From assembly GCA_964608405.1 (NCBI GenBank), contig CAZSNC010000001.1:18667-82666 (forward strand): 64,000 nucleotides of DNA. The letters are read 5' to 3'. The DNA is from an uncultured Gammaproteobacteria bacterium. GTDB lineage: Bacteria; Patescibacteriota; Microgenomatia; UBA8517. The notes under the pieces are model-generated. The model did not search any database, was not told the origin of the DNA, and saw nothing but the letters and a program-made list of their open reading frames with translations. A program made the translations under genes and the position numbers. Below are positions 739 to 19,421 of this stretch, piece by piece. Within the stretch, counting starts at the first letter, position 1; each line of letters begins with the position of its first letter.

Positions 739-1965
739 TTAAAAATTATTCATTCCTCCAACCAGACTATAAATTGGGGTTATCATAATTACTACCATGG
801 CTCCAACTGCCACTCCGATCACCAACATCAAAATCGGTTCCAAAAGCGATGTCAACTTTTTCAGGGTAAAATCTACTTCCTTCTCATAAAAATCAGCCAT
901 TTCGGACAATACCTCTTCCAGGCTGCCGCTTTTTTCACCTGCTTTTATTGTTTGCACAACAGTTGAGGGGAAAATCTTTTTCCCGCCGATGATAATTTCC
1001 GAAAGTTGCTTTCCCTGAGCAACACCTGCTCCAAATGACTTTGCCTCCTTCTTAAGGGCGGGTTGTTGAATAATATTTGCACAAACTTCAAGACAAACCA
1101 TAATTGGAACACCACTTGCCAAAAGAGTAGATAGTGTCCTGGAAAAACGCGCAATGTCGATTTGGATTATTAAACCCTTAATTGCAGGCAACTTCATCAT
1201 AAAATCAAAGATTGCGTTCCTGCTTTTCTGAATCGTAAAAAGCAAAAAGACAATCAGTGCTATCGCAAACACTCCTGCAATTACCTCTTTTGTGTACTTT
1301 CCCACAAATATTCCCACATCCAAAACAAATTTTGTAGCTACCGGGAGTTCCACTCCAAGGTCATAAAAAACCTGTGCAAGTTGCGGAAGAACAAAAACAA
1401 GCATCACTACAAAAACTGCTGCCATTGCACACACTATGACAATCGGATAAGTCATTGCGCCTTTCACTTTTTGAACCAATTCATAACTTAAAGTTAATTG
1501 TTTTGACAAATAATCAAATGCCTTGTCCATTGTTCCGGATTCTTCACCGGCTTTCACCATCGTCAAAAATACCGTATCGAAATCTCTTTTGTATTTCGAT
1601 AAGACAGACGAGATTGTTTTACCTTTCCGGACTTCAAACGATACATCTGTTAACACTTTTTTCAGTTTTCGGTTTTTTGTCTCATCTTTGATAATATCGA
1701 TTGCTTCAGGTAAGGGTAATCCTGCACGCAACATCGTTGCCATAAATCTACAAAAAGCCGCTTTTTCCGAGGTTGAAATAGACCCCGCCATTAATCCGCC
1801 TACATCCTGATCCACCTTCTTAATCGTCATTATTTTGTATCCTTCGGAAGCTAATGTGGATGCAGCATCTTTAACGGAGGATGCCTGTAATATATCTTCA
1901 ACCAAATCTCCCCTTTGATTTTTGACTTTAAATGAAAAAAGCGGCATATTATTCTTCTTTTGCAA
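739..1965 (-). CDS. pilC: type IV pilus assembly platform protein PilC (GspF family)
   Basis: 408 aa with two GspF-type repeats and three TM segments; typical PilC N-terminus. Overlaps pilB stop by 17 nt, the usual pilB-pilC arrangement. Confidence 0.85.
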   Translation of the reverse strand: MQKKNNMPLFSFKVKNQRGDLVEDILQASSVKDAASTLASEGYKIMTIKKVDQDVGGLMAGSISTSEKAAFCRFMATMLRAGLPLPEAIDIIKDETKNRKLKKVLTDVSFEVRKGKTISSVLSKYKRDFDTVFLTMVKAGEESGTMDKAFDYLSKQLTLSYELVQKVKGAMTYPIVIVCAMAAVFVVMLVFVLPQLAQVFYDLGVELPVATKFVLDVGIFVGKYTKEVIAGVFAIALIVFLLFTIQKSRNAIFDFMMKLPAIKGLIIQIDIARFSRTLSTLLASGVPIMVCLEVCANIIQQPALKKEAKSFGAGVAQGKQLSEIIIGGKKIFPSTVVQTIKAGEKSGSLEEVLSEMADFYEKEVDFTLKKLTSLLEPILMLVIGVAVGAMVVIMITPIYSLVGGMNNF

Positions 1966-3628
1966 CCCTAAAGACCTCCTCGATTGTAGTTAAACCGGAA
2001 GAAACCTTATCCATCCCGTCACGCATCATCGTAATCATTCCGTCAGCTACTGCTTCCTTAAAAAGTTGTTCCGTAGTAGGTCGTTGAATAATCACTTCAC
2101 GGAGCTTTTCCGTAACCGGCATTATTTCATAAATTCCAATTCTTCCCGAATAACCTTTATGATTACAATCATCACAACCTTTGCCTTTATAAAACTTTAA
2201 TTTTTCAGCCTCACTTCCCAGTTCTTTTGAAAGTTTTTTAAGGACCACCTCATCTGGTGTGTATTTTGCAATGCAAGAAGGACATATTTTTCGAACCAAC
2301 CGTTGAGCAACAACGACATTTAATGTGGATGCCAAAAGAAAGGCTTCTGCTCCCATATCCAAAAGCCTGGGAACCGCGCCGGAAGCGGTATTGGTATGAA
2401 GTGTCGATAAAACCAAATGTCCGGTTAATGCAGAGTGTATTGCAATTTCTGCTGTTTCCTGATCCCTAATCTCTCCAACCATAATAATGTCCGGGTCGTG
2501 TCTCATTAAAGCACGCAGACCTGCCGCAAAAGTAAGGCCTGTTTTGGGATTAACCTGGATTTGTGTAACCCTATTCATCCCGTATTCAATCGGGTCTTCG
2601 ATTGTACATATTTTTACTTCGGCGGTATTAAGCATATTAAGAAGTGAGTAAAGAGTTGTTGTTTTACCGGAACCTGTCGGACCCGTTACCAAAATCATTC
2701 CGTGAGGTTTCATGGAATTTTCCCGCAATATTGCCAAGCCTTGTCCGGTAATTCCCAATTCTTCCAAACTCAAGGGGCGGTTTGTCTCACGCAAAATTCT
2801 CATTACGACATTCTCGCCATAAAAACCGGGTATGATTGAGATACGAAGTGCAATAGCTTCGTCGTCAATATTGAATTTATGTCTGCCGTCCTGAGGAATT
2901 CTATGTTCGTCAATTTTTAGGTTAGAGAGAATTTTTATTCTTGCGACCAACGCCTCCTCGGTTCCTTTTTTGAATTTGAACATATCCCTAAGCATTCCGT
3001 CGATTCTAAAGCGCACCACAACATCTTCGGATTGAGACTCGATATGGATATCGGATGATCGAAGCGCAACAGCATACTCAAAAATCGTATTTAATATCTT
3101 AACAACCGGAATATCCTCTGCCGCTTTTTCCAGATTATCCCCTGGTGACACCTTTTTGATATTCTCCGAAATAATTTTTTCGAAATCGCTTTTTAAATTC
3201 TTTTTATACTGACCAAGAGCTTTGGAGATGTCCTCATTGCGTGCAAAGTAGGGTTCAATTTCATAACCAGTTTGTCTTTTCGCAAATTCTATTGCTTCAA
3301 AATCCTCCGGGTTCTCCATCGCCAATTTGATCTTTTTATCCTTAAACTCGAAGGGGATCATTCTGTAAGTACGGGCAAGTTTTTCGGGTATAAGATTAAG
3401 TATCTCCGTTGGAATAAAAAGTCTTCTTACATCCGCATATGGAATATTAAGATGCTCGGAAATAAGCTTACCGAGTGAATCCTCACTGACAAGTCCTCTA
3501 AAAATTAAAACATCGGAAATATCTCTTCCTTGGTCTTGAGAACTTTTGAACGCGTCATCAAAATCCGCTTCGGTTACATAACCAGATCCTACCAGAATTT
3601 TTTTGAGTTTTTCAGGTGATATAAGCAT
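1949..3628 (-). CDS. pilB: type IV pilus assembly ATPase PilB (GspE family secretion ATPase)
   Basis: 559 aa; N-terminal GspII_E-like region; Walker A LVTGPTGSGKTTTL; Asp/His boxes; C-terminal tetracysteine motif CPSC...CDDC typical of PilB/GspE. Confidence 0.9.
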   Translation of the reverse strand: MLISPEKLKKILVGSGYVTEADFDDAFKSSQDQGRDISDVLIFRGLVSEDSLGKLISEHLNIPYADVRRLFIPTEILNLIPEKLARTYRMIPFEFKDKKIKLAMENPEDFEAIEFAKRQTGYEIEPYFARNEDISKALGQYKKNLKSDFEKIISENIKKVSPGDNLEKAAEDIPVVKILNTIFEYAVALRSSDIHIESQSEDVVVRFRIDGMLRDMFKFKKGTEEALVARIKILSNLKIDEHRIPQDGRHKFNIDDEAIALRISIIPGFYGENVVMRILRETNRPLSLEELGITGQGLAILRENSMKPHGMILVTGPTGSGKTTTLYSLLNMLNTAEVKICTIEDPIEYGMNRVTQIQVNPKTGLTFAAGLRALMRHDPDIIMVGEIRDQETAEIAIHSALTGHLVLSTLHTNTASGAVPRLLDMGAEAFLLASTLNVVVAQRLVRKICPSCIAKYTPDEVVLKKLSKELGSEAEKLKFYKGKGCDDCNHKGYSGRIGIYEIMPVTEKLREVIIQRPTTEQLFKEAVADGMITMMRDGMDKVSSGLTTIEEVFRVAKEE

Positions 3629-6604: not shown

Positions 6605-7831
6605 TTATCTTGCACTTGTAGTTTCTGTAACTTTTATTTCACGGATTACTGTTACTTTAATTTGTCCTACATATTCAGCTTCTTTTTCAAGTTTTCTTGC
6701 AATATCATGCGCAAGTACTGTTAAGCGCTCGTCGTCAACCTCATCGGGTTTGACAATTACCCTTACATCACGACCCGCCTGAAACGCATAACTTACATCA
6801 ACACCGTCAAACGACTTCGCAATTTCCTCAATCTTACTCATCCTTACAACATAATCCTCATGTGGTTCATACCTTGCTCCTGGTCGCGAACCGGATATTG
6901 CATCTGCAATCCAAACTATTGCCGATTCAACCGAAGAGAAAGGTCTTTCCTCATGGTGTTCGGCAACACAAGCAACAACTTCCTTCGGAAAACCGTATTT
7001 TTTCAAAGTAGTAACACCCACCTGAACATGTGTTCCCTCCTCATCAGTAACAACTTTGCCGATATCGTGAAGTAAACACCCCAGTCTCACGATGTCAATG
7101 TTCGCCCCAATTTCAGTTGCAATAGAAACCCCTATTTTTGTTTCTTCAATTGTATGAATTCCGAGATTCTGTCCATAGGAAGTTCTGAACCTATATCTAC
7201 CAATAAGTTTTAAAAGATCCAATGATAAATTGTATACTCCACATTCCTCCGTTATTTTTTTACCCTCGGAAAGAAGAACATCTTCCATTTGAGTTTTAAC
7301 CTGTCTTATAACTTCCTCGATTCTTGAAGGTTGAATCCTTGCATCTTTTATTAAAGTTTCCAGTGATCTTTTTGCAATCTCTCTTCTTACGGCATCGAAT
7401 GAAGAAAGTCTTATTTCATTTGTTTCATCGATTTCAATCTCAACTCCCGCTTCTTTTTCAAATGTTCTGATATTTCTTCCTCCGGCACCGATAATCCTAC
7501 CCTTAACGTCTTCATTCGGAACAGTTACTGTGGAAACCGTGTATTCGGCTGTGTAGGCAGTTGCGCCGTGCTTCATTGAATCGATTAATATTTCTTTGGC
7601 TTTTTCGCCCGCTTCAAGTTTTATCCGATCCTCAGCTGCCCTTATTTTTTTAGCAATTTCTTCGGTGAGGTCCTTCTGAACCTCTGCAAGAAGAAGCTTT
7701 TTGGCTTCATCGGGGGAGAGCTTGGATACTTTGGAAAGTGCGTCTGTTAATTCCTTCTCTTTTTTCTCAAGAGCTTCCTCTCTTTTTCTGAGGTTAATAT
7801 TATTTTTATCGGAAACATCGTTTGTATTCAT
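6605..7831 (-). CDS. rny: ribonuclease Y (KH + HD domain endoribonuclease), lacking the usual N-terminal membrane anchor
   Basis: 408 aa; coiled-coil N-terminus, KH domain (GRIIGAGGRNIRTFE) and HD domain (LLHDIGK...HHEER). No N-terminal TM helix is visible. Confidence 0.75.
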   Translation of the reverse strand: MNTNDVSDKNNINLRKREEALEKKEKELTDALSKVSKLSPDEAKKLLLAEVQKDLTEEIAKKIRAAEDRIKLEAGEKAKEILIDSMKHGATAYTAEYTVSTVTVPNEDVKGRIIGAGGRNIRTFEKEAGVEIEIDETNEIRLSSFDAVRREIAKRSLETLIKDARIQPSRIEEVIRQVKTQMEDVLLSEGKKITEECGVYNLSLDLLKLIGRYRFRTSYGQNLGIHTIEETKIGVSIATEIGANIDIVRLGCLLHDIGKVVTDEEGTHVQVGVTTLKKYGFPKEVVACVAEHHEERPFSSVESAIVWIADAISGSRPGARYEPHEDYVVRMSKIEEIAKSFDGVDVSYAFQAGRDVRVIVKPDEVDDERLTVLAHDIARKLEKEAEYVGQIKVTVIREIKVTETTSAR

Positions 7832-7984
7832 AATTTGAATTTATCGAAACACGAAGACGAAGCCTTTATTTAAAGGCCAAGTGAAGAAAACTCAATTTTG
7901 GTCTTTTCCACCATATTCGTATTTCTTAAGATGTATTTTAATCTTTATTGACTTTTCGGTCAACCTCCGAAAGGAAAAAATGAT

Positions 7985-8587
7985 TTAAATCACCTTTTTA
8001 ATTACATCCCATTTAAAGCCTTTTCTTGCAAGAAATTTACTAATCCTTTTCCTTCTTTCCAATTTTCCTAATCCGCGCCATCGATATCCTTTCTTGTCCA
8101 ATAATATTCGAGCGGATTTTTCTTCATCGATTTCGGCGCTGTTTAACACTTTATTTATTATTTCCTTGCCTATACCTTTACCCGCAAGCTCATAATACAA
8201 ATCTTTTATTGACTTATTTTTAAACGCCAACCGTTGTTCAATCCACCACCTCGCAAATTTTTCATCATCTAATAGATCTAAATGTTTAAGCTTTTCGACA
8301 AGGGTACTTTTTAGATCATCTGCCACTTTCTTTCTTGCCATCCAGTCATTTACCTCCTTTTCGCTTCGTGGCCTTAGGCTGACAAAAAGCAAAAGCCAAT
8401 CAAGAGCTTTTTGATATTCACCTTTTTTTAAAATTCTGACAACATCTTCATCGGATAATACATTCCCTGCTTTAAGGCCCAGCCTCACAAAATTTTCAAG
8501 ATCTAACCCGAAACCAAACCTTCCATCAAGATAAATATTTACCCTTTTTTTGATTCTTTGAAGTTTAATGGAGGTAATAGTGGGCAT
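7985..8587 (-). CDS. recX: RecA regulator RecX
   Basis: 200 aa helical-repeat protein directly downstream of recA on the same strand; RecX-like repeats (YLDGRFGFGL...ALDWLL...). Confidence 0.7.
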   Translation of the reverse strand: MPTITSIKLQRIKKRVNIYLDGRFGFGLDLENFVRLGLKAGNVLSDEDVVRILKKGEYQKALDWLLLFVSLRPRSEKEVNDWMARKKVADDLKSTLVEKLKHLDLLDDEKFARWWIEQRLAFKNKSIKDLYYELAGKGIGKEIINKVLNSAEIDEEKSARILLDKKGYRWRGLGKLERRKRISKFLARKGFKWDVIKKVI

Positions 8588-8620
8588 ACAAAGGGAGTAA
8601 AGTGCTACTTATAGAAAAAA

Positions 8621-9700
8621 CTACTCATCGGCTTCTTCCCCAATTTCTTTCGGAATTTTTTTACCGGAGGCGACAACCTCACGAATTTTCTTTTCAATTT
8701 CATCAGCAAGTTTCTTATCTTCCTTAAAAAGGAGTTTTGCACCCTCCTTGCCTTGAGCTAACACTTTTCCTTCGTAATTAAAAAACGAACCTTTCTTCTC
8801 CAGAATCCCCAAATCAACCGCAACATCCAAAAGCCCACCGGTTTTTGAGATTCCCTCATCGTTCATGATATCAAGCTCCGCAATCCGAAGAGGAGGTGCG
8901 ACTTTATTTTTTACAATCCTTACACGATGCCTTGATCCAATTACATTTTCGCCGTCTTTTAAAACCTCTATCCTTCTAATATCAAGTCTTACCGATGCAT
9001 AAAACTTAAGAGCCAAACCACCTGGAGTAGTTTCAGGATTTCCAAACATCACTCCGATTTTTTGCCGAAGTTGATTTGTAAAAATAAGAATTGTTCTGCT
9101 TTTTGAAATTGCACCCGTCAATTTTCTGAGGGCTTGACTCATAAGACGGGCCTGAAGTCCCATTACAGCATCCCCCATTTCCCCCTCAAGTTCTGCCCTG
9201 GGGACCAAAGCAGCAACAGAATCAACAACAATTACGTCCAAAGCACCCGAACGGATCAACGTTTCCGTAATTTCAAGAGCTTGTTCACCAGTATCGGGCT
9301 GTGACAGAAGCAGGTCGTCCAAATTCACACCTATCGTTTCAGCCCTTTTAGGATCAAGTGCGTGTTCAGCATCAACAAAAGCACACTGTCCCCCCATTTT
9401 TTGAGCCTCGGCAATGACATGAAGTGAAAGAGTCGTTTTCCCAGATGCTTCAGGGCCGTATATTTCAATGATCCTTCCTCTGGGAAGACCACCGACACCA
9501 AGTGCCAGATCCAGCGCTATTGAACCGGTTGGCACAACGTCGACTTTAAATTTCTCGTCCGCCCTCTCGCCGAGGCGCATGATCGAACCTTTTCCGTATT
9601 GTTTTTCAATCTGATCCATTGCGAGGCGGATTGCCGTTAGTTTAGCCGAAGAATTTTCTTGCTGCTTGGGAGCTTCCACTACTTTTGCTTTCTTTGCCAT
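8621..9700 (-). CDS. recA: recombinase RecA
   Basis: 359 aa; Walker [11 protein letters not shown]; L1/L2 loop regions; highly conserved RecA core. Confidence 0.95.
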
Positions 9701-9743
9701 TAATAGAGAAATACCACAAATTTGGAATATTTACAATTGGGAT

Positions 9744-10715
9744 TTATGGGGCAAGACAACAAGTATCTAAAGTATTATCCGGATCAGTGCCGCAAACCTC
9801 ACCGTTTAGATAATTACACTCCTGATTAGTTATGCATCCATAACCGCCATTACAGGTTGTAAAACCTACAGGTAGTGTTGGAGCTGGAGTTGAGTTAAAA
9901 TTCTCACAGGAAGGATACCAAAGGCCACAAGTGGAATATGTGCCACAGCAAACCCATCGCTGGAATGAATCAAAACAAGCATTGCAGTCAGGGGGAAGTG
10001 TGCAACAACAGTCAGGAAAAGGACCTACTGGATTACATACGGCAGCAGCAACAGAAACCACATTACCTGAACATAAACCATCAGCAACACAACTCCCTGA
10101 AGAAATACTACCGTATACAGCCTGACACGCACTGTTACAATCAGGCGCCGTCGTGGGAGCAGGAGTAAGTGAACCCCTACAGCAACAATTGTTCGGGGGA
10201 TTTGTTAACGCACACATATTATTGTCGGGTACCTCTATTTCATAACTTGCACAACTATTCATCGTACATCTGCCAATATTATTCACATACCCCGCCGCTT
10301 GGCAAGCCGCAGAGCAATCACCTAATGTTCCGGTTGGAATCGAGGTAGGACTAAGCGACACAGTGACGGCTGCCGTTGGACCTACTATTGGAACCCCAAC
10401 ATTACCCAAATTGATTCCAAAAACGACGTTGATTGTTTTTAATATTACCCATAATGCAAAAAGAACAAACAGCCCGGTGACAGCATTAATTATCTTACTC
10501 CTTGCACCTTCCAATTTTTCCTTACTTCCACCGGAGGTAGTCCATTGGATACCACCAAAAATCAAAAGGAGAAAAAATGCGAGTATGCAAATGATATAAC
10601 CAACGTTAATAAATACCGGAATCAATCTATTCGCATAATCCACTGCAGTAAAATTCCTTAATGGTTCGATTAACTGTGGATTGTAAATTCTTTGGACCAG
10701 TGATAGAGCGTTCAT
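9744..10715 (-). CDS. cysteine-rich surface protein with an N-terminal two-helix membrane hairpin (pilin-like) and a C-terminal 6-Cys module; paralog of 11279..13192
   Basis: 323 aa, about 36 Cys. N-terminus is hydrophobic helix - GGIQWTTSGGSKEKLEGARSKIINA - hydrophobic helix; extracellular part is rich in CC/CCC runs. C-terminal CNGGYGCITNQECNYLNGEVC...TCC is shared with the 637-aa protein. ATGA start/stop overlap with the upstream gene. Confidence 0.6.
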   Translation of the reverse strand: MNALSLVQRIYNPQLIEPLRNFTAVDYANRLIPVFINVGYIICILAFFLLLIFGGIQWTTSGGSKEKLEGARSKIINAVTGLFVLFALWVILKTINVVFGINLGNVGVPIVGPTAAVTVSLSPTSIPTGTLGDCSAACQAAGYVNNIGRCTMNSCASYEIEVPDNNMCALTNPPNNCCCRGSLTPAPTTAPDCNSACQAVYGSISSGSCVADGLCSGNVVSVAAAVCNPVGPFPDCCCTLPPDCNACFDSFQRWVCCGTYSTCGLWYPSCENFNSTPAPTLPVGFTTCNGGYGCITNQECNYLNGEVCGTDPDNTLDTCCLAP

Positions 10716-11266
10716 ATTGTTTTTAAAACTTCACCGTTATACACCTTCCATTGAGAGTCAATTTTAACCATTGTGAAATCCCAATAGGTTTTTGTCTGAG
10801 AAACAGTAATTTCAACACCAACATACGCATAGTCTTTATTTTCAGAGTACTTCACACTAAAAACAGTGAATGATATATTATTTTTATATCTTACAACACC
10901 TTCCATAAAATGTTTAAGTTTCTCTTTGGAATTAAGATCTGACAAACTCCCCGACGCTTCATCAACTTGATTGTTTCTTAGTAATTTGAAAAACTTCAAA
11001 AGTTCCACAACAGGCGCTTCGTCAAGATAACCAGTTGATCCGCTTGTAACCGTGCTACCATCTTCTAAGTTGACATCCTGTGACAATAGTCTATCCGTTT
11101 CTAAATTTCTTTTCTCCGAAGATCTTGAAATACTTCCATATGCATTGGAAAAAATTGTAATACCAATAAGTAAAAACACAAATACTCCCAAAATAATTAT
11201 TTTAGAGTTTTTTGACCAAATGAGGGAAAATTTAGATTGTAAATTCAGATTCTGTGGTTGTTCCAT
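10712..11266 (-). CDS. hypothetical membrane-anchored protein (single N-terminal TM, small extracytoplasmic beta-rich domain) encoded between the two Cys-rich paralogs
   Basis: 184 aa; TM helix IIILGVFVFLLIGITIF. C-terminal domain resembles small lipoprotein/NTF2-like folds (YAYVGVEITVSQTKTYWDFTMVKIDSQWKVYNG). 13-bp gap to the upstream gene and 4-bp overlap with the downstream gene. Confidence 0.55.
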   Translation of the reverse strand: MEQPQNLNLQSKFSLIWSKNSKIIILGVFVFLLIGITIFSNAYGSISRSSEKRNLETDRLLSQDVNLEDGSTVTSGSTGYLDEAPVVELLKFFKLLRNNQVDEASGSLSDLNSKEKLKHFMEGVVRYKNNISFTVFSVKYSENKDYAYVGVEITVSQTKTYWDFTMVKIDSQWKVYNGEVLKTI

Positions 11267-11278
11267 AATATTATTTTA

Positions 11279-13192
11279 CTATTGACAGCAGGTTGTACCG
11301 ACCACTGAATCAAATAGGCACTCTTCTCCACCCATATAATCACATTCTTGATTTGTTGTACATCCATAACCACCATTACAGGCAGCAGAAATAGGATTAG
11401 GAACACAATTGCAATACGTCCAGTTAGTTGCATGTCCGTTGCAAAGGGGGGAAGCTATAGACGCCAATATTCCGCTGTAGCACCCGTGTACATTCGTAAG
11501 ACTACACATATCAACATATGTCATACCATTATCAGCAGTACTATTTGTTCCTATCGATTGGCAAAAATCACCGTTACGAAAACCGTTAAGCCAACAAAGG
11601 TCACGGCAAGATATACCAGTTGCTTCGTTCAATAATATGTTTTCAGCAGCTTGACACCTCCCGTTATTACAAATATTTCCGCCGCAACAATCATTACTTG
11701 TCGAACAACCACTACCTGATAAACGACAACATCTTCCGGCGTCACATCCGTATGTCACATCCGGAAGTGAGGAAATATTTCTACAATCATAAGTTTGGGA
11801 CATTGGAGATGTTGAAACACAATAGTTTTCATTTAATAAAACGGAACTGGAGCAGCGGTCAGATACGGAAGAAAAGACACCCAAACTACTCATACTGCTT
11901 ACAAACCCATACGTTGAATAATTTATTCCTCCATCAGTATCAGTACAAAAAGCTGCAATAGTTGGGGTCGGAAAAGGGGTTGCGGTCGGAACAGGAGTGT
12001 TTGTAGGCAACGGTGTTGAGGTTGGAACTCGTGTTGGAGTAGGTGTAGGAATTCTTGTTGGTGTAGATGTTGGAATAGTTGTTGGAGTTTGTGTCGGAAT
12101 TCTTGTTGGAGTGGGAGTTGCGGTTACTGGGGGAAGAAGAATCCTTGTAGGTATGGGTGTGTTTGTTGATGTTGGTACAACTAATGTTGGCGTTGATGTT
12201 GGAAGATCCAAGCCTCCAACTGGCGGTGTCGTCGGAGTAACATAAGTACAAACCCATGCGCATCCAGGAAGTGGAATAATTGAAACACACGCTGCTTGTG
12301 TAAGCCGACCAGGACACCAACTTGGACCCATACACGAACAAAAATTTGGAACCATTGTTGGGGTTGGTATTAAAGACGGTACTAAAGTCGGGGTTACTTG
12401 TGGACAACACCAACAGTCCTGAGTTGGTCCTGTACAATCACCATTGAAATTCTGACAACCTGGATACGGTGGTTGTGAATTTACCCCTGGTGCACCAACA
12501 CAATAACCCTGTGTAAGAGGTGTACCACTCGGAAGGGGTGTACCCGTTGTAGCAATCCTCGTTGTACATAAAACCGAACAGTCTCTATAAACTACTGGTG
12601 ACGGTGCCACCGGACAACAAATGCAATCTGCTGTTGGATCGGTGCAATTGGTATTAGAATCCCCACAACCAACATACGGATAAGGAGTTCCTGCTGGAAT
12701 ACAATATCCAACTGTACTCCCTGTACAATTATCCGTACAACTTCTATATCCCACAACAACCGATGTAGGAGCTGGACCTCCGCTTCCCGCCGTCCCAAAG
12801 TTGGCAATATCCACTCCAAGAATTAGGTAAACAAGTCTTGAGATGACAAAAATAGAAAGAAGAATCAGGAGTCCGATAATGGCATGAGTAATCTTTCCTC
12901 TTGCTTCCGCAAGTTTACTTTTGTCACCACCTGCCGTAATCCACTGAAATGCTCCGATAATAAAAACAATGACAAAGACAACAACAGCGATTATATAAAC
13001 AATATTTAGCACCCTTGGAATTATTGTATTGATATAATCCCACCCACGTCCGAGCCCACCACTTAAGACGGGATTTGAAACCTGAGTTAACAATACCGAA
13101 TTTAAAAACATACCAATCACTATGATATTAACATAAAGTTGTGAGTATATTCTATAAGTGACACCACACCTCCTTTGTGAATATGAAATCAA
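11279..13192 (-). CDS. large cysteine-rich surface protein: N-terminal pilin-like membrane hairpin, internally duplicated Cys modules, Pro/Thr-rich tandem-repeat linker, C-terminal 6-Cys module
   Basis: Up to 637 aa (the ORF track starts at a TTG; the probable start is ATG at 13111, MFLNS...). Shared N-terminal motif FQWITAGGDKSKLAEARGKITHAII. Internal repeat NCTDPTADCICCP / GDCTGPTQDCWCCP. PT-repeat linker (PTPTRIPT units). A hevein-like spaced-Cys stretch CCRLSGSGCSTSNDCCGGNICNNGRCQ. C-terminal CNGGYGCTTNQECDYMGGEEC...TCCQ. Confidence 0.6.
   Translation of the reverse strand: MISYSQRRCGVTYRIYSQLYVNIIVIGMFLNSVLLTQVSNPVLSGGLGRGWDYINTIIPRVLNIVYIIAVVVFVIVFIIGAFQWITAGGDKSKLAEARGKITHAIIGLLILLSIFVISRLVYLILGVDIANFGTAGSGGPAPTSVVVGYRSCTDNCTGSTVGYCIPAGTPYPYVGCGDSNTNCTDPTADCICCPVAPSPVVYRDCSVLCTTRIATTGTPLPSGTPLTQGYCVGAPGVNSQPPYPGCQNFNGDCTGPTQDCWCCPQVTPTLVPSLIPTPTMVPNFCSCMGPSWCPGRLTQAACVSIIPLPGCAWVCTYVTPTTPPVGGLDLPTSTPTLVVPTSTNTPIPTRILLPPVTATPTPTRIPTQTPTTIPTSTPTRIPTPTPTRVPTSTPLPTNTPVPTATPFPTPTIAAFCTDTDGGINYSTYGFVSSMSSLGVFSSVSDRCSSSVLLNENYCVSTSPMSQTYDCRNISSLPDVTYGCDAGRCCRLSGSGCSTSNDCCGGNICNNGRCQAAENILLNEATGISCRDLCWLNGFRNGDFCQSIGTNSTADNGMTYVDMCSLTNVHGCYSGILASIASPLCNGHATNWTYCNCVPNPISAACNGGYGCTTNQECDYMGGEECLFDSVVGTTCCQ
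11985..12245 (-). repeat. in-frame tandem Pro/Thr-rich repeat region (PTPTRIPT-type units) inside the 637-aa Cys-rich protein
   Basis: DNA-level periodicity encoding ...PTSTPTLVVPTSTNTPIPTRILLPPVTATPTPTRIPTQTPTTIPTSTPTRIPTPTPTRVPTSTPLPTNTPVPTATPFPTPT. Both alternative frames and the antisense strand give long artefactual ORFs (11997..12245 +, 11940..12437 -), as expected for low-complexity repeats. Confidence 0.7.
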
Positions 13193-13218
13193 TTCGCGGT
13201 TTGCTAAAATAGCGGTTA

Positions 13219-13292
13219 CGGGGTGTAGTTTAACGGTAGAATGGGCGCATGGGGTGCGTCCGGCGGCAGTTCAATTCTGCCCACCCCGACCA
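13219..13292 (+). tRNA. tRNA-Pro (anticodon GGG)
   Basis: Hand-folded cloverleaf: 7-bp acceptor CGGGGTG/CACCCCG; U8 A9; D-loop AACGGTA with the conserved GG; anticodon stem GGCGC/GCGTC; loop AUGGGGU (U33, anticodon GGG, G37); 4-nt variable loop; T-arm GGCAG-TTCAATT-CTGCC; discriminator A; encoded CCA. Confidence 0.75.
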
Positions 13293-13297
13293 AAATT

Positions 13298-13624
13298 ATG
13301 AAGGTTAATAATAATATCAGGTCGGCAATTTCAAATATTAGTAAGAACAAACTTCTTACAGTAGCTGTCTTACTAACATTCTTTCCTTTTGTTATTTGGT
13401 CTTTTGGTGCAGTCAGTTATATTTGGGCAATAATTTCCAACTTTGTTCTCACTAAACTTCCCGTATGGACTACGGTGTTTTTCTTATTGGTCGCTCCTTT
13501 TTTAGCCTTTTTCTTAAGCTTAATCAACTATTTAAATAAAAAGGATAAATTATCCAAAAAGCTCTTTCTGTTAAATCTCGTTTTTATCTCGCTCTCGATT
13601 ATTTCCTCACTTCTGTTTTCCTGA
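13298..13624 (+). CDS. small hypothetical polytopic membrane protein (3-4 TM helices)
   Basis: The ORF-track ORF 13241..13624 overlaps the tRNA, so it is trimmed here to the first ATG after the tRNA (MKVNNNIRSAISN...). Strongly hydrophobic. It is the only plausible plus-strand CDS in the window and is weakly supported. Confidence 0.35.
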   Translation: MKVNNNIRSAISNISKNKLLTVAVLLTFFPFVIWSFGAVSYIWAIISNFVLTKLPVWTTVFFLLVAPFLAFFLSLINYLNKKDKLSKKLFLLNLVFISLSIISSLLFS

Positions 13625-13630
13625 AAAAAT

Positions 13631-13882
13631 TCATGCTACACGTTCGTTGAGGGCACTGTAGAATTTCTGTAGATAATTTTCCGCTTTGTCCCAATGTTCA
13701 TCGCTCTGATTTTTTTCGGCTAAATTCCTTTCAATATTTGCTAAAACAAACAAATGTGCCGCCTTTGCAGCCTGAAATAGGGAGATCCTATAAACCTCTG
13801 CATATAAATTCTTAGCAATATCCTCGGCATCCCCTGAGTTTTTTATATCCCCCGTATCGTTAATTTCTTTCCAAAATTTCAC
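13631..13882 (-). CDS. hypothetical small helical protein
   Basis: 83-aa ORF in the same frame as, and just downstream of, the uppS C-terminal extension, separated from it by stop codons. No recognisable motif. Confidence 0.4.
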   Translation of the reverse strand: MKFWKEINDTGDIKNSGDAEDIAKNLYAEVYRISLFQAAKAAHLFVLANIERNLAEKNQSDEHWDKAENYLQKFYSALNERVA

Positions 13883-13975
13883 CTGTAGCGATGCTGCAAG
13901 AGAGGGTTCAAACGCCAGCTTTATTTCATCTCTGATGAGGGTGTAAAAACGCTTTAATGCAATTTTAGCTTTTTT

Positions 13976-14941
13976 CTACTTTCTTTCATTACCCTCAGTA
14001 AACGCTTGAGAAAGTAACTGCCCTGCTTCTTTTGCTAAGTGTTTTGACAAACCATACTGTTCTTTAACATGAGCTGCTGCATAGTCACGAAATCTGGTGT
14101 CATTTGGTATATTTGCAAGTCTCCACCAATTGATTTCCAGATCGGCAATAAGTTCGGGTTTAAACATCAAATGACTTTCCCTGTCGTTTCCACCAAACCT
14201 CCGTCTTCTTCTTGAATAATCCAATACGGCATCTTTCAATTTTTCGGGGGTAAAATCGGGGAAATGGTCGTTTTCCCAAAAATATTCAGTGTACGGTGAA
14301 TCCCAAAGAAGAAATCCGCTTGTTCTTTGCTCACCAGAAGTTCGTATCATAAGATCAACATATGGATAAGGTTGGTTGTGAAGATCTACATATTTATCCA
14401 AAACCTCTTTCGATATTTCATTCTCGGATAGTCCATCAGCAACCATCTTCTTAATGGCTCTAATTATGTCGTCTTGTCCTCCATAATCGATTGCCAGATT
14501 AATAATATGTTTAGTGTTTTTTTCCGTCATCTTCTCCGCATATGAAATCTTCTCTAAAAGAAATTTCGGAATTCTGTCCTTTCTGCCTATATGAACGATC
14601 CTTATTCCGTCTTGTTTTGCTTCCATCAGATAGTCATCGATAAGTTTCTTATAAAGTTTCATCAAATACTTAACCTCATCTTCACTCCTATCCCAATTTT
14701 CCGTGGAAAAACCCCATAAAGTTACTGTGTGTACACCCATCTTTCTAGCGGCACGCCCTACCTCTACTGCTCTTTCAAAACCAGCTTTATGTCCCAGAAG
14801 CGTATGAAGCCCGCGGGAACGCGCCCAACGCCTATTGCCATCCGGAATCAACGCAATATGATTTGGTACCTTTGTTCCTTTGGGAAGTTTGAGGCTTGTG
14901 TCGGAAGACATGAGGAGATTATAACATAAGACCATCAACAA
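13976..14941 (-). CDS. uppS: isoprenyl transferase / undecaprenyl-diphosphate synthase (UppS) with about 70-aa C-terminal extension
   Basis: Catalytic motif IALIPDGNRRWA (UPPS DGNGRWA box), the central WGFSTENW and the ...SRRRRRFGG end of the canonical fold, followed by an extra helical tail. Confidence 0.8.
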   Translation of the reverse strand: MLMVLCYNLLMSSDTSLKLPKGTKVPNHIALIPDGNRRWARSRGLHTLLGHKAGFERAVEVGRAARKMGVHTVTLWGFSTENWDRSEDEVKYLMKLYKKLIDDYLMEAKQDGIRIVHIGRKDRIPKFLLEKISYAEKMTEKNTKHIINLAIDYGGQDDIIRAIKKMVADGLSENEISKEVLDKYVDLHNQPYPYVDLMIRTSGEQRTSGFLLWDSPYTEYFWENDHFPDFTPEKLKDAVLDYSRRRRRFGGNDRESHLMFKPELIADLEINWWRLANIPNDTRFRDYAAAHVKEQYGLSKHLAKEAGQLLSQAFTEGNERK

Positions 14942-15503
14942 AAACTCTTAATTCTTCATCGTTTTTTGCCATCTGGGAAAAAGTTTCCAATCTTTTTTCA
15001 AATTCTTTTTTAGCACTTTCAAAATGAACTTGTCCTCTAACCGAAGCAATTCTTTCTCTCCATATCTTTACATAATGGTCAAAACCTTCTTTTGATATTT
15101 TCCCGTTTGCCAACAAGTTGATAAGTATTTTACCCCGCTTGTCGGATACATACTCCAATTTATCAGCATCAAAAAGTATTTGTGCTTCCGTTGAGCCTTG
15201 TAAGTTGCCAAACGAATGGGATCCAACAATCTCAAGAATCGTATTTTGCATTTCACGAGAGATATTACACTGATGCATTTTAACCTTTAGTAAAGCATTT
15301 TCATCATCCTGTCCCCGTTGGACATCGTGCCACCAAGCTGCAATTTTTAATGCATCCAAGTTTAAATTTTCCAATTTTTCTTCTTCAATAATCCGCAAAC
15401 AATTATTCCAAACTGCTTCATGATGCCTTTCGTCATGTACTGCATCAAAAGGAGATTCTATTAATTGGCGTTGTGCAATTGTGACAAGTTGCTCTGTCGA
15501 CAT
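14919..15503 (-). CDS. HD-domain phosphohydrolase family protein
   Basis: 194 aa; H...HD metal-binding pattern (VHDERHH ... AAWWHDV ... D). Overlaps the uppS start by 23 nt. Confidence 0.6.
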   Translation of the reverse strand: MSTEQLVTIAQRQLIESPFDAVHDERHHEAVWNNCLRIIEEEKLENLNLDALKIAAWWHDVQRGQDDENALLKVKMHQCNISREMQNTILEIVGSHSFGNLQGSTEAQILFDADKLEYVSDKRGKILINLLANGKISKEGFDHYVKIWRERIASVRGQVHFESAKKEFEKRLETFSQMAKNDEELRVFVDGLML

Positions 15504-15551
15504 AAAGCTATCGGCAGGATTTTAAATATTAATTACGTCCAAAACAACTTA

Positions 15552-15953
15552 TTACCTCTTTGGAGACTGTTTTGCACGTCTTGCTTTTCCTCCGGTTCCA
15601 ACCTTACGACGTTCCCTAATCCTTGCGTCACGTGTAAGAAGGCCGGCTTTTTTCAGAGGAAATCGTAAATTTTCTTTCTCAACCTTTGCTAAAGCTTTTG
15701 CTATTCCGTGTATAACCGCATCCAATTGACCTTTTTTCCCTCCTCCGATTACCCTGACGGATGCATAATATTTATCGGAGACATCCACTTGCTTAAATGC
15801 TTTCCCCCAAATATTTTTAAATACCGGAGCGTCAAAATATTTCTCTACAGGAATGCTGTTAACCGTTGTTTCACCTTTTCCTTTAAACAGTCTGATGCGT
15901 GCAGATGCGGTTTTACGTCTTCCAACAGCATATGTATATTCCAATTTTTTCAT
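15552..15953 (-). CDS. rpsI: 30S ribosomal protein S9
   Basis: 133 aa; conserved C-terminal ...RRKVGTGGKARRAKQSPKR. Confidence 0.93.
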   Translation of the reverse strand: MKKLEYTYAVGRRKTASARIRLFKGKGETTVNSIPVEKYFDAPVFKNIWGKAFKQVDVSDKYYASVRVIGGGKKGQLDAVIHGIAKALAKVEKENLRFPLKKAGLLTRDARIRERRKVGTGGKARRAKQSPKR

Positions 15954-15960
15954 AATTTAT

Positions 15961-16374
15961 TTATTTTAACTTATCTTCGTACAAATGTTTCTCTCCGGAA
16001 AATATTTTAAGTCTGGCAAGTCTTTTTGCTTTCAGACGATTGTCGGGAAGCATTCCCTTCACGGCAGAGAGAACAATCTTCGTAGGATCTTCCTTTAACA
16101 TTTTGGCATAAGTCACCTCTTTAAAACCTCCCGGGTAACCGGAATGGCTTCTATACACTTTCTGTCTTTCTTTTCTCCCCGTAACCTTAACTTTTTTGGC
16201 ATTAATTACAACTACATAATCACCGCTATCGATATGTTGTGAGTAATTGACCTTATCTTTCCCTATTAATTTAACCGCAATATCTGTTGCAATTCTTCCT
16301 AAAACTTTCCCGTCAACATCCACGAGATGCCATCCTCTTTTTACTTCCTTCTTCCTTGGTTGATATGTTTTCAT
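15961..16374 (-). CDS. rplM: 50S ribosomal protein L13
   Basis: 137 aa; MKTYQPRKKEVKRGWHLVDVDGKVLGRIAT N-terminus typical of L13. Confidence 0.93.
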   Translation of the reverse strand: MKTYQPRKKEVKRGWHLVDVDGKVLGRIATDIAVKLIGKDKVNYSQHIDSGDYVVVINAKKVKVTGRKERQKVYRSHSGYPGGFKEVTYAKMLKEDPTKIVLSAVKGMLPDNRLKAKRLARLKIFSGEKHLYEDKLK

Positions 16375-16375
16375 A

Positions 16376-16891
16376 CTATTTCTTTGGCGTCTCTTTCAAC
16401 TTTTTAAGGCTTAATCTTTCAACAACCTGTGCAATTGAAGGTTTACCTTTTACACTTTTTCCATCTCTACCATCCTTACTTTCTTTTACTTTCTCCGAAG
16501 ATTCCTCCTTCTTCTCAATTGTTTTCTTTTCTTCGATTTTAACTGTAAACTCGATCCTCGTCATTGCTGCATTGTCCCCTTTCCTGGCTGGTAAATTAAT
16601 ATATGTGAGAAATCCGCCGTTTTTAGAGACAATCAGTTTTGATAATCGAATTATTTCATCAGAAACTTTTCTGTCATTACCGACAATCCTATAAACAAAA
16701 CGCCTGTCGGAGAGAGTATTTTTTCTAGCCCTCGTTATCAATTTTTCGTACATCGGACCAACAACCTTCGCTTTCGCGTAGGTCGTGACCAATTTCTTAT
16801 TCCCCGTGAGTGAACCTATAAGCGCACGATACATCGCACGCCGACTCGTAGTATCACGAGAGAATTTTTTTCCAAACACTTTCTTTTTCAT
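16376..16891 (-). CDS. rplQ: 50S ribosomal protein L17 (with C-terminal Lys/Glu-rich extension)
   Basis: N-terminal ...FSRDTTSRRAMYRALIGSLTGNKKLVTTYAKAK... matches the L17 core; about 50 extra C-terminal residues. Confidence 0.9.
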   Translation of the reverse strand: MKKKVFGKKFSRDTTSRRAMYRALIGSLTGNKKLVTTYAKAKVVGPMYEKLITRARKNTLSDRRFVYRIVGNDRKVSDEIIRLSKLIVSKNGGFLTYINLPARKGDNAAMTRIEFTVKIEEKKTIEKKEESSEKVKESKDGRDGKSVKGKPSIAQVVERLSLKKLKETPKK

Positions 16892-16965
16892 AATATCGGC
16901 CGTTGCAACTACCCAACAACCTACCCTTGTTAAAGGCTTAAAAGTGAACTTTGTCGATTTTTCAA

Positions 16966-17898
16966 TTAAGCTCTAAGACTCAGGCTTTTTTCACCCAAGG
17001 CGGCTTCAATAATCTTCACTGATTTTTCGCCTAAATTTCGTACTTTAACAAGTTTTGCCCTTTCTGCCTTCACCAGGTCTTCAACGGTATCGTAACCGGC
17101 TTTTATTAATGCGTTTGCAACTCTGGTTGGAAGATTTATTTCCTCAACGGATAATTTTCCAACTGGACCCAAATCGTCGCTTTTTGCATCATCTGATACT
17201 TTCTCGACTTTCTTAGGAGACACTATCTGCATGAAATAAGAAACCATAATATTTGCAGCCTTTAAAAGTGCTTGTTTCGGATCAATTGTTCCGTCTGTCC
17301 AGATTTCCAAAACCAAACGGTCATAGTTTGTCAATCTTCCTACACGTGTTTCCTCAACTCTATAATTGACTCTTACAACCGGTGTAAATACGGCATCCAT
17401 CGGAATCACTCCGACTTCTCCGGTTTTCCTGTCATCTGACGAAGAATAACCAACACCCGTCTCCACATCCATTTTTGCATTCAATACAGCATCTTTGTTA
17501 AGGTAAGCCAAAACGAGCTCAGGATTGGCAATTTTGGCAGGAGGATCAATTTTAATATCCTTTGCCTTCACCTCTCCGGCTCCTTTTATTTCAAGGCTGG
17601 CTTTAATAGCTTTATCCTCGTTATAAAAAATTCTGACTTTCTTTAGGTTGAGAAGAAATTCAATAACATCCTCTTTCATTCCTTTGAGGGATGAAAACTG
17701 ATGTTTTACTCCGGCAATCTTTACCCTTGTGATTGCAGTACCGGTCAAACTTGTTAATAAGACTCTTCTTAGTGAATTACCCAACGTATTACCATACCCT
17801 TCTTCCAAAGGACTGATAACAAACTTTGCGTAATTTGCTTTTTTATCTTCTTCTGTTATTTGAAATATCGGTTCGTTCACTTTCTCACCACCTTTCAA
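16966..17898 (-). CDS. rpoA: DNA-directed RNA polymerase subunit alpha
   Basis: 310 aa; N-terminal dimerisation domain and C-terminal alphaCTD (helix-hairpin-helix ...VEEINLPTRVANALIKAGYDTVEDL...). Confidence 0.93.
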   Translation of the reverse strand: MKGGEKVNEPIFQITEEDKKANYAKFVISPLEEGYGNTLGNSLRRVLLTSLTGTAITRVKIAGVKHQFSSLKGMKEDVIEFLLNLKKVRIFYNEDKAIKASLEIKGAGEVKAKDIKIDPPAKIANPELVLAYLNKDAVLNAKMDVETGVGYSSSDDRKTGEVGVIPMDAVFTPVVRVNYRVEETRVGRLTNYDRLVLEIWTDGTIDPKQALLKAANIMVSYFMQIVSPKKVEKVSDDAKSDDLGPVGKLSVEEINLPTRVANALIKAGYDTVEDLVKAERAKLVKVRNLGEKSVKIIEAALGEKSLSLRA

Positions 17899-18018
17899 TT
17901 TGTTTTATCTATTTTTTTCGCTCAACCCTAAGGGAATTATCCTCGAGTTTGAACGAAAAATTCCACAAGACTCGTAAACCCATGGAAGTTTACCATAGGC
18001 ACGATGCTTATGGAAGCC

Positions 18019-18621
18019 TCATCTCGAATAATACTCAACAATATCCTGTTCCGCTATCGGTTCCGTAATATCTTCTCTAACTGGATTTCGAACAATTTTA
18101 CCTATAATTCCTTTTCTCTCAAGCCAAGACGGGGCTTTAAAATTCTTATTGCTTGTCAGTTTTACTACCGACGGAATATTTACCCCCTTTGCAGACAGTG
18201 TTACAACATCGTCTTTCTTTACCTGATACGAAGGTATGTTTACTTTTTTCGAATTCACCCTCACATGCCCATGCGAGACAAATTGTCTTGCAGCTACCCT
18301 TGTCGGGGCTAATCCGAGTCGGTATATCACATTATCAAGACGTCTTTCCAAAAGCGATAGTAATACTTCACCCGTATTTCCGCGGGATTTCAATGCTTTC
18401 TTTGCATATCCCGAAAACTGCCTTTCCAAAATTCCATAAAGTAATTTCACTTTCTGTTTCTCTTTCAGTTGTTTTGCATACTCCGAAGCGGAACGACGTG
18501 ACTTTTTACCTCCGTGCATTCCAGGGGGTACGTTAAGCCTCGTTAACTTTGAACCTTTTCCAAAAAGGTCAAATCCAACCGATCTTGATAGTCTGTCTTT
18601 GGGTCCTGTATATCTTGCCAT
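18019..18621 (-). CDS. rpsD: 30S ribosomal protein S4
   Basis: 200 aa; MARYTGPKDRLSRSVGFDLFGKG N-terminus; S4 RNA-binding domain. Confidence 0.93.
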   Translation of the reverse strand: MARYTGPKDRLSRSVGFDLFGKGSKLTRLNVPPGMHGGKKSRRSASEYAKQLKEKQKVKLLYGILERQFSGYAKKALKSRGNTGEVLLSLLERRLDNVIYRLGLAPTRVAARQFVSHGHVRVNSKKVNIPSYQVKKDDVVTLSAKGVNIPSVVKLTSNKNFKAPSWLERKGIIGKIVRNPVREDITEPIAEQDIVEYYSR

Positions 18622-18634
18622 ATAATTTTATTTT

Positions 18635-19015
18635 TTAAGCTCTTCTTTTCTTCTTCGGCCTTGGTCCATTGTGCGGAATAGGCGTCATATCAGCAATCAT
18701 CGAAATTCTTAAATTTGCACTTCTAACCGCACGCAATGCCGCATCCCTTCCGACACCTGGTCCTTTGACATATATTTCAACTTCCTGAAGACCGTTTTCG
18801 GCAACTGCCTTTCCCAAAGCTTTTTCAACAGCAGAGGTTGCGGCGAAAGGAGTTGATTTTCTTGTTCCTTTAAAACCGGTATTACCTGAAGAGCTCCAGG
18901 AAATTACACCGCCGTTTTCATCGGTTACCGTAACCAGAGTATTATTAAATGACGCGGAAATATAAAGTTTCCCTTTTTCGACCTGTTGTTTTAATTTTTT
19001 CTTTTCTTCACTCAT
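18635..19015 (-). CDS. rpsK: 30S ribosomal protein S11
   Basis: 126 aa; conserved ...PHNGPRPKKKRRA C-terminus. Confidence 0.93.
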   Translation of the reverse strand: MSEEKKKLKQQVEKGKLYISASFNNTLVTVTDENGGVISWSSSGNTGFKGTRKSTPFAATSAVEKALGKAVAENGLQEVEIYVKGPGVGRDAALRAVRSANLRISMIADMTPIPHNGPRPKKKRRA

Positions 19016-19025
19016 AGATTATTTA

Positions 19026-19421
19026 TTATTGAGCTTTCTCAACCTTTGCCAAAATGTCTTTCTTAAAAGCTCCGATTGTCTTTCTTTTGCCTCTTTTTGT
19101 ACGGGCATTGTGTCGAGTTCTCTGACCTCTGGCCGGAAGGTTTCTGGAATGTCTCAATCCCCTAAAAGAGCCGATCTGCTGAAGTCTGGCCACATTTGAC
19201 CTCACTTGCCTTAGCAAATCTCCTTCAATAGGAATTTTTTCTATTGTTTCGGTAATTTTTGAAATATCACCAGGTGTCAAATCACGTACTCTTTTTTCTA
19301 AAGGTAATCCAACATCTGACATTATTTTTTCCGCAAGCGGCATTCCAACACCTTTAATAGTAGTCAATGAATATACCACTCTGTCTTTATCGTTTAATTC
19401 GTGTCCTGCAATTCTTGCCAT
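19026..19421 (-). CDS. rpsM: 30S ribosomal protein S13
   Basis: 131 aa; MARIAGHELNDKDRVVYSLTTIKGVG N-terminus. Confidence 0.93.
   Translation of the reverse strand: MARIAGHELNDKDRVVYSLTTIKGVGMPLAEKIMSDVGLPLEKRVRDLTPGDISKITETIEKIPIEGDLLRQVRSNVARLQQIGSFRGLRHSRNLPARGQRTRHNARTKRGKRKTIGAFKKDILAKVEKAQ

Follow-up and report, generated by a model that had tools for sequence, protein, structure and literature searches.

How does a patescibacterium, which lives attached to other microbes, choose and hold its partner? The molecules that do so are largely unknown, and a locus in a stretch of 64,000 nucleotides from contig CAZSNC010000001.1 (hereafter the window, to whose positions all coordinates refer) offers a candidate. 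The minus-strand open reading frame 11279..13192, which spans 637 residues when read from a TTG at 13192, is a real gene, and its product of 610 residues, numbered here from the ATG at 13111, joins a predicted membrane hairpin to an ectodomain of cysteine-rich modules and a Pro/Thr (PT) stalk. Stalk length, alleles and modules of this protein change among near-identical strains in a fixed chromosomal slot, as one would expect of a protein that meets the host. We consider, with a probability of roughly 60%, that this Woesebacteria-like patescibacterium displays the protein on its surface for binding or attachment and varies it from strain to strain. The locus is thus a concrete candidate for what determines host specificity in Woesebacteria. 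The features on which the argument draws are listed here from the start codon onward.

11279..13111, minus strand: coding sequence of the 610-residue protein, from the ATG at 13111 to the stop codon at 11279-11281
12797..13111, minus strand: membrane hairpin resembling type IV secretion system (T4SS) pilins, residues 1-105 (Pfam PF18895, AlphaFold, hydropathy)
12596..12751, minus strand: module A1, residues 121-172, 8 Cys, C-x3-C ... C-x-CC-P (A1 versus A2 alignment)
12383..12592, minus strand: module A2, residues 174-243, 8 Cys, duplicate of A1 with a Pro/Thr-rich insertion (alignment)
12236..12355, minus strand: module B, residues 253-292, 6 Cys (ortholog comparison)
about 11951-12205, minus strand: Pro/Thr linker or 'stalk', 85 residues, residues 303-387, no Cys (tract scan)
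12012-12112, minus strand: tandem array within the linker, 2 x 48 nt or 4 x 24 nt (Tandem Repeats Finder, TRF)
11729..11956, minus strand: module C, residues 386-461, 6 Cys, 'FCxDSDGG ... L.E.YC' (orthologs, AlphaFold)
11651..11728, minus strand: module D, residues 462-487, 6 Cys, C-x6-C-x5-CC-x4-C-x4-C (knottin pattern)
11396..11641, minus strand: module E, residues 491-572, 8 Cys, 'NILLNE ... WTYCNCVPN' (in all orthologs)
11282..11392, minus strand: module F, residues 574-610, 6 Cys, 'CNGGYGCTTNQEC...CC' (common with the paralog C-terminus)
11187..12369, minus strand: allelic divergent tract, compared with strain contig L002, which ends at 11187

What would place such a protein at the cell surface? 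The N-terminal hairpin, which an initial annotation made from the sequence alone had overlooked, matches PF18895 (T4SS_pilin) with 36.7 bits in the 637-residue frame, against a gathering cutoff of 26.6, and has the traits of VirB2/TrbC-type proteins, namely two hydrophobic helices and a short, positively charged loop. The AlphaFold model has helices at residues 24-59 and 64-98 with a predicted local distance difference test (pLDDT) score of 73-82. The two transmembrane (TM) segments, TM1 and TM2, lie at approximately residues 33-55 and 76-99, Kyte-Doolittle peaks are centered on residues 35-54 and 80-97, and the K/R-rich loop between them, QWITAGGDKSKLAEARGK, holds four K/R residues. This loop is positively charged and, by the positive-inside rule, would be cytoplasmic; we therefore infer that the C-terminal ~500 residues are extracellular. 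All 48 cysteines, an even number, lie C-terminal to TM2, the hairpin having none, and they are probably disulfide-bonded. Extracytoplasmic disulfide machinery of the MdbA-like/VKOR type is enriched in candidate phyla radiation (CPR) genomes (bioRxiv 10.1101/335083).

Is the hairpin an anchor, or does it enter a filament? The protein could be a true polymerizing T4SS-type pilin, a major or likelier a minor or tip subunit, whose modules decorate the exterior of a VirB2-like filament as a 'modular pilin', a reading that we regard as possible, yet doubtful. PF18895 membership argues for it, as does a weak similarity to NF045849, a pilin-like family of mycoplasma integrative and conjugative elements (E 1.9e-4, 21 bits against a cutoff of 40). 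In solved conjugative pili, the two ends of the pilin point outward, and F-pilin accepts peptides fused to its C-terminus. The layout of the locus is also that of patescibacterial VirB2-like gene arrays (PMC12102498). However, an extension of 500 residues per subunit is hard to fit into tight helical packing, virB4, virB6 and virB3 are all absent from the 64-kb window, and no large open reading frame in it is a T4SS component. Pfam TrbC does not match the hairpin significantly (E 0.65), and neither a profile search of PDB sequences, in which all matches were generic TM ones, nor a Foldseek search with the full-length model ties it to a solved T4SS pilin. The size of the family members likewise argues against a polymerizing pilin. 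The best 120 proteins listed in a profile search with the N-terminal domain, which leave out the long relatives found with the full-length protein, are all 98-196 residues long and consist of the hairpin only, whereas the long proteins add 210-500 residues of Cys-rich modules plus a PT stalk. The ectodomain is therefore an add-on, and long Cys-rich PF18895 forms appear as a rare elaboration of the family. As a 500-residue appendage is sterically awkward and no T4SS genes are linked to the locus, the hairpin is more likely an anchor or a minor subunit than a major pilin.

Genes for pilus or secretion machinery occur at one place only in the window, 739-3628 on the minus strand, ~6-9 kb downstream of the locus. 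They encode a PilB-like type IV pilus assembly ATPase (T2SSE and MshEN domains) and a PilC-like platform protein (T2SSF).

Strain variability is seen directly in the linker, which has a pLDDT of ~30 and is predicted to be disordered. TRF resolves the DNA at 12012-12112 into a period of 24 (3.7 copies, 78% matches) or of 48 (2.0 copies, 84% matches, score 138), encoding the units TPTRIPTQ TPTTIPTS TPTRIPTP TPTRVPTS, and the remainder of the 85-residue tract is Pro/Thr-rich and aperiodic. The initial annotation had placed a PT linker at 11985-12245; the tract spans about 11951-12205, and its periodic DNA is confined by TRF to the shorter interval 12012-12112. The two long open reading frames that it had put down to the repetitive DNA, 11997..12245 on the plus strand and 11940..12437 on the minus strand, are both present, and their translations are repetitive nonsense. 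A protein from a metagenome (P0079, JGI 3300022302), which falls into the same 90% cluster, has 625 residues, is 98% identical and carries one extra block of 16 residues, TPTRIPTQTPTTIPTS. In the metagenome contig L002, whose copy of the gene is 98.0% identical in nucleotides, exactly 48 nt are inserted at window position 12077. The array in L002 and P0079 thus has 3.0 copies with 90% matches, against 2 in the window, where the two copies are only 81-84% alike (81-96% for copies overall). The suggestion that the in-frame repeat varies in length is borne out by these alleles, 98% identical and with two and three copies of the 48-nt unit: copy number differs between close strains, as in tandem-repeat surface proteins of variable length. 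The unit is in frame, 16 codons long and inside the coding sequence, and its gain or loss therefore alters the length of the stalk, not expression; an on/off slipped-strand contingency locus, in which a short repeat would shift the reading frame or the promoter spacing, is rejected on this ground and because the copies are only 81-96% alike.

Does the stalk persist over longer evolutionary distances? In every ortholog, 20-104 residues of PT tract precede module C. The 72%-identical ortholog has an array of its own (42 nt x 2.3), and a 40%-identical ortholog has a PT tract of 104 residues with no DNA repeat. The Pro/Thr character of the tract thus persists, while arrays at the DNA level are gained and lost. 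Pro/Thr 'PT boxes' are familiar as interdomain linkers in glycoside hydrolases that bacteria and fungi secrete; the stalk resembles these linkers in composition, predicted disorder, place between folded modules and rapid length evolution. In contrast to those enzymes, the present protein bears neither a catalytic module nor a known carbohydrate-binding one.

A second form of variation is a mosaic of near-identical and diverged sequence. Window and L002 are 99.5% identical over 19111..12012, and the stretch 13599-12400, with the hairpin, A1 and A2, shows not a single mismatch. From module B onward (12369-11187), nucleotide divergence rises to 5-6%, against 0-0.5% in the 6.7 kb upstream, with 21 synonymous and 14 non-synonymous codon differences in the divergent tract. 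At least three other samples (L009, L011 and L016) carry the window-type 3' half without change, and the L002-type 3' half occurs in both JGI and ENA data. These patterns are best explained by two alleles of a ~1.15-kb 3' segment that would have been exchanged by homologous recombination.

Short-read assemblies break repeatedly in this region. Five short-read contigs from different samples, all with an identical paralog, end at 11218, and contig L011 stops exactly at 12077, the junction of the 48-nt indel. We fetched 10 of the 22 contigs that carry the identical paralog; none extends upstream past 12077, and therefore none spans the repeat. The recurrent breaks at 11218 and 12077 suggest that the alleles co-exist in those samples.

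The third form of variation is the exchange of whole modules. A full-length search recovered 13 clear relatives with 36-72% identity, all with the hairpin and one of them named Candidatus Woesebacteria, and a profile of modules C, D and E matched two of 185,579 species genomes, both Woesebacteria. It is on these named relatives, all Candidatus Woesebacteria, that the assignment of the organism rests. The C-D-E core is kept in all relatives, with every cysteine and many non-cysteine positions invariant, and the region from the hairpin to this core differs in each lineage. In the 72%-identical relative (P0002), an unrelated, Cys-poor module of ~130 residues takes the position of module B; P0005 and P0010 carry module C twice, and in P0014 a repeat block of ~330 residues separates C from D. 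P0003 and P0004 have, in place of module F, a module that is found at residues 242-272 of the paralog in the window. The module shuffling proposed earlier is thus visible both among orthologs and across the two gene slots of the locus, and the PT linkers are the boundaries at which orthologs and paralog swap modules.

Such variability could also belong to a structural envelope or coat protein, part of a rigid, disulfide-cross-linked and possibly glycosylated layer whose changes allow escape from phages or predators. We hold this to be unlikely. The protein is rich in cysteine, threonine and proline (7.9%, 12.8% and 10%, respectively), PT stalks are typical of wall-spanning spacers, and allelic mosaicism with module turnover is typical of phage-receptor escape as well. 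A distal head conserved in C, D and E, with invariant cysteines and many other invariant positions across orthologs of 37-72% identity, suggests a specific function rather than bulk structure, however, and genomes have only one to three copies of such genes.

How might a surface-displayed binding or attachment protein work with these parts? The VirB2/TrbC-type hairpin would sit in the cytoplasmic membrane with its charged loop in the cytoplasm and its C-terminus directed outward. The ~500 outer residues would comprise the lineage-specific disulfide modules A1, A2 and B, followed by the extended Pro/Thr stalk, beyond which the conserved, disulfide-rich C-D-E head would be presented together with module F. 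The head would be the conserved functional end, most plausibly binding a ligand or host surface, be it a partner cell or a polymer, and the length of the stalk would set its reach through the cell envelope. Diversity could arise from three sources: the 48-nt units may be gained or lost by replication slippage or unequal recombination, diverged 3' halves may be imported by homologous recombination, and Cys modules may be swapped, duplicated or lost at PT-linker boundaries, among orthologs and among the two to three slots of the locus.

Binding or attachment is the function that we consider most likely, and several observations weigh against it or against parts of this proposal. No module matches a characterized binding domain, and A1, A2, B, E and F have no confident model. 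No signal peptide and no Shine-Dalgarno sequence is recognizable ahead of ATG 13111, and the window lacks virB4, virB6 and other T4SS components, as described above. Synonymous and non-synonymous differences are both raised (21:14), which fits recombination and gives no sign of positive selection. Lastly, the record of repeat change comprises only two alleles.

What are the Cys modules themselves? Alignment of A1 with A2 gives a Smith-Waterman score of 116 against 36 +/- 7 for composition-preserving shuffles (z=11.4, reached by 0 of 2000), and their alignment, which runs from 'YR(S/D)C' to 'CxCCP', keeps 8/8 cysteines in register, A2 carrying a Pro/Thr-rich insertion of 15-17 residues. The internal duplication noted in the initial annotation is therefore genuine, with a unit of ~50-70 residues instead of the ~30 given there. 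An exhaustive phmmer search with A1-A2-B against 1.84 billion representatives returned only the protein's own cluster and one weak match. Outside the window protein, A-type modules were found in P0002, P0008 and the paralog-slot protein of locus L006, and an alignment covers six A-type modules in all. Because only three sequences carry these modules, AlphaFold models them poorly: pLDDT is 28-54 for A1, A2 and B. Two further relationships were considered and rejected: module E is not a third A copy despite its similar C-x3-C start and C-x-C-P end (z -0.3/0.4; hhalign probability 2.3%), and homology between the A modules and the duplicated modules of the paralog is unsupported (z -0.5 and 0.4).

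Modules C and D, in contrast to A1 and A2, are modeled with confidence as beta-rich units (pLDDT 70-91 together; 76-91 for C and 70-83 for D), so that a defined fold is predicted for part of the Cys units. Module E is poorly modeled (pLDDT 36-69). No solved structure matches the confidently modeled modules, and module C has no match among Pfam families. Module C does recur as tandem repeats of 70-80 residues in other uncharacterized proteins, including one from Woesearchaeota, and is an unnamed module, marked by CxDSDGG, that is common to ultra-small archaea and bacteria. Several of the Cys modules are newly defined, with no known family or fold, and this one is shared with DPANN archaea.

The motif 'CxDSDGG...GTV...D.C...L.EYYC' stands in three to four tandem copies in small secreted proteins of other lineages (P0092-P0103). 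The carriers include Woesearchaeota, which are DPANN archaea, and in two proteins the motif is fused to a Kazal protease-inhibitor domain.

Module D calls for separate treatment. The stretch CCRLSGSGCSTSNDCCGGNICNNGRCQ lies at residues 461-487, its leading cysteine being part of module C, and had been likened in the initial annotation to hevein and knottins. The six cysteines of module D fall within the inhibitor cystine knot (ICK) spacing C-x3-7-C-x3-8-C-x0-7-C-x1-4-C-x4-13-C, and this spacing is conserved in 13 orthologs. A search of PDB sequences with the core profile touched only spider ICK toxins, with six cysteines aligned and sub-threshold E values of 0.11-0.47. Pfam Toxin_12 is matched by 6/7 orthologous D modules, one of them above the cutoff (23.9 bits), and by the window copy with 12.7 bits against a cutoff of 21; D modules also match the Toxin_23 and conotoxin families. 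Pfam Chitin_bind_1 (PF00187), on the other hand, does not match module D even at E<=10, whereas the ICK toxin families recur, and a hevein-like or chitin-binding identity is rejected. The knottin part of the earlier resemblance holds at the level of the pattern, and module D is best called knottin-like, a resemblance in which family membership is unproven. Compared with ICK knottins such as those of Toxin_12 and omega-atracotoxin-Hv2a (PDB 1g9p), D shares the six-Cys spacing and, in the model, a predicted C-terminal beta-hairpin bearing Cys V and VI. It differs in being internal to a bacterial membrane protein rather than a secreted animal peptide, and the scores of the window copy stay below threshold.

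Might module D, or another Cys module, be cut off by proteolysis and then attack host or competitor cells, either as a toxin or as an antimicrobial peptide? The recurrent matches to ICK toxin families and the spider toxins as closest PDB sequences point that way, but the matches are driven by Cys spacing and the window copy stays below threshold. Module D is moreover embedded from C to E with neither a linker nor an obvious processing site, its CC pair is shared with module C, and no toxin-immunity or export genes are adjacent. We consider release as a toxin very improbable, and return to the binding or attachment protein to ask how its locus is organized. Two neighboring genes belong to it.

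9744..10715, minus strand: paralog of 323 residues with a PF18895 hairpin (Pfam 29.8 bits against the cutoff of 26.6)
10712..11266, minus strand: companion gene of 184 residues with one N-terminal TM helix, between the two pilin-like genes

The paralog has its own duplicated modules of 8-9 cysteines (z=6.3), a 6-Cys module and module F, the last aligning to the tail of the 610-residue protein with a score of 110 (z=13.9). Its start overlaps the stop of the companion (ATGA). It has no tandem repeat, as the initial annotation had stated, and all full-length members of its cluster are 323 residues long. The companion is 36-45% identical to 180-residue gene products at the same position in L001 (2187-2729) and L006 (1811-2353), and its 184-residue product has no match in Pfam, NCBIfam or PDB sequences; a VirB8-like NTF2 fold would be a guess for it. 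Two PF18895 genes around one non-pilin gene are also found in L001, L003 and L006. Proteins of the paralog slot keep the N-terminal domain (80% identity to a 422-residue protein of L001), and their ectodomains are unrelated. The slot itself is conserved in the order ribosomal protein/rpoA operon, uppS, the locus, recA, recX and RNase Y, and its content in Woesebacteria is one to three long PF18895 genes, which TM companions of 168-184 residues may accompany.

How does this arrangement compare with known systems? Bimodular type IV pilins, such as PilB of Streptococcus sanguinis, carry an adhesive module grafted C-terminally on a pilin module, and type IV pilins in general have a single N-terminal helix and are processed by a prepilin peptidase. 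The present protein may be likened to them in concept, as an anchor or pilin with a C-terminal functional module; it differs in its VirB2-type hairpin, there is no homology, and polymerization is unproven here. Patescibacterial VirB2-like pilin arrays are variable, either tandem or with one non-pilin gene in between, abundant in Microgenomatia and proposed to aid host adaptation (PMC12102498). The locus resembles these arrays in the N-terminal hairpin domain, the chromosomal location, the two paralogs of low mutual identity (38% between the N-terminal domains) around one non-pilin gene, and the lineage, Woesebacteria lying within Microgenomatia. It differs in adjoining recA and uppS, not virB4. 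The sections of that survey that were searched do not describe long forms; published surveys treat patescibacterial VirB2-like 'pilins' as small, whereas the present form is rare, long and carries a head on a variable stalk.

A second body of work concerns large Cys-rich extracellular proteins of CPR genomes, which vary among strains and have been proposed to act in attachment; in Peribacteria, their variation is a main source of genotypic difference among strains (PMC4736985). The protein described here resembles those of Peribacteria in being, as predicted, extracellular, and in being very Cys-rich, strain-variable and a proposed attachment factor. It is likened to them by description only, as they average ~1650 residues and have signal peptides and no pilin-type anchor. 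A membrane-anchored variable protein fits the published VirB2-like arrays, the CPR Cys-rich proteins and the CPR disulfide machinery. A bolder proposal is that the long PF18895 proteins are modular conjugative-type pilins, the hairpin entering or capping a VirB2-like filament that shows exchangeable, disulfide-rich heads, a knottin-like unit among them, on a Pro/Thr stalk of tunable length. We offer this as speculation and would not expect it to hold. If it did, the uppS-recA locus of Woesebacteria would shuffle cassettes for host recognition and so set their specificity for partners. The proteins would form a new class of adhesive pilins, a bacterial counterpart to antigenic or tropism variation.

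Where does translation of the 610-residue protein begin? Four lines of evidence agree with the initial annotation in favoring ATG 13111 over TTG 13192. A public NCBI record gives the identical product of 610 residues; the N-termini of the orthologs all align at this ATG, beginning 'MF(L/I)..AQV.NP'; in-frame stops interrupt the upstream frame in two orthologous loci; and TTG 13192 is 27 nt away from a divergently oriented tRNA-Pro(GGG) at 13219..13292. The public record, the ortholog stops and the proximity of the tRNA rule out the TTG, and by all these comparisons ATG 13111 is the true start.

The leader ahead of it (13112-13218, minus strand) has blocks whose sequence is kept in L001 and L006. 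A strong AAGGAGG at 13169-13175, 58 nt 5' of ATG 13111, precedes an out-of-frame upstream open reading frame of 15 codons, which runs from GTG 13167 or 13164 to a TAG at 13120-13122 and stops 9 nt short of the ATG. The leader may encode a leader peptide, serve reinitiation or contain a promoter. In a promoter and terminator scan of 9500-13400, counts were not above those of shuffled sequence.

Some further observations concern the slot and its surroundings. In L001 and L006, a second, unrelated TM protein of 168-176 residues follows the second pilin-like gene; the window does not have it. In L003 (Candidatus Woesebacteria RIFCSPLOWO2_01_FULL_39_23), the gene at 7446-8657 encodes 403 residues with tandem pilin-like hairpins at residues 3-112 and 116-212 and, C-terminal to these, C-like and E-like modules; the neighboring protein of 700 residues has two E-like modules. 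The uppS gene on the minus strand of the window has an in-frame TAG at 13976-13978, where the 99.5%-identical L002 has TGG (Trp). Relatives have a single undecaprenyl-diphosphate synthase of 426-434 residues, and the window splits off its C-terminal extension of ~115 residues as open reading frame 13631..13882; either the TAG is a nonsense polymorphism, or the sequence is in error here. Finally, a 767-residue open reading frame at 46825-49128 (minus strand) weakly matches Baseplate_J-like (E 4.9e-7, 29.7 bits) in an otherwise housekeeping stretch that extends from alaS to yceG.

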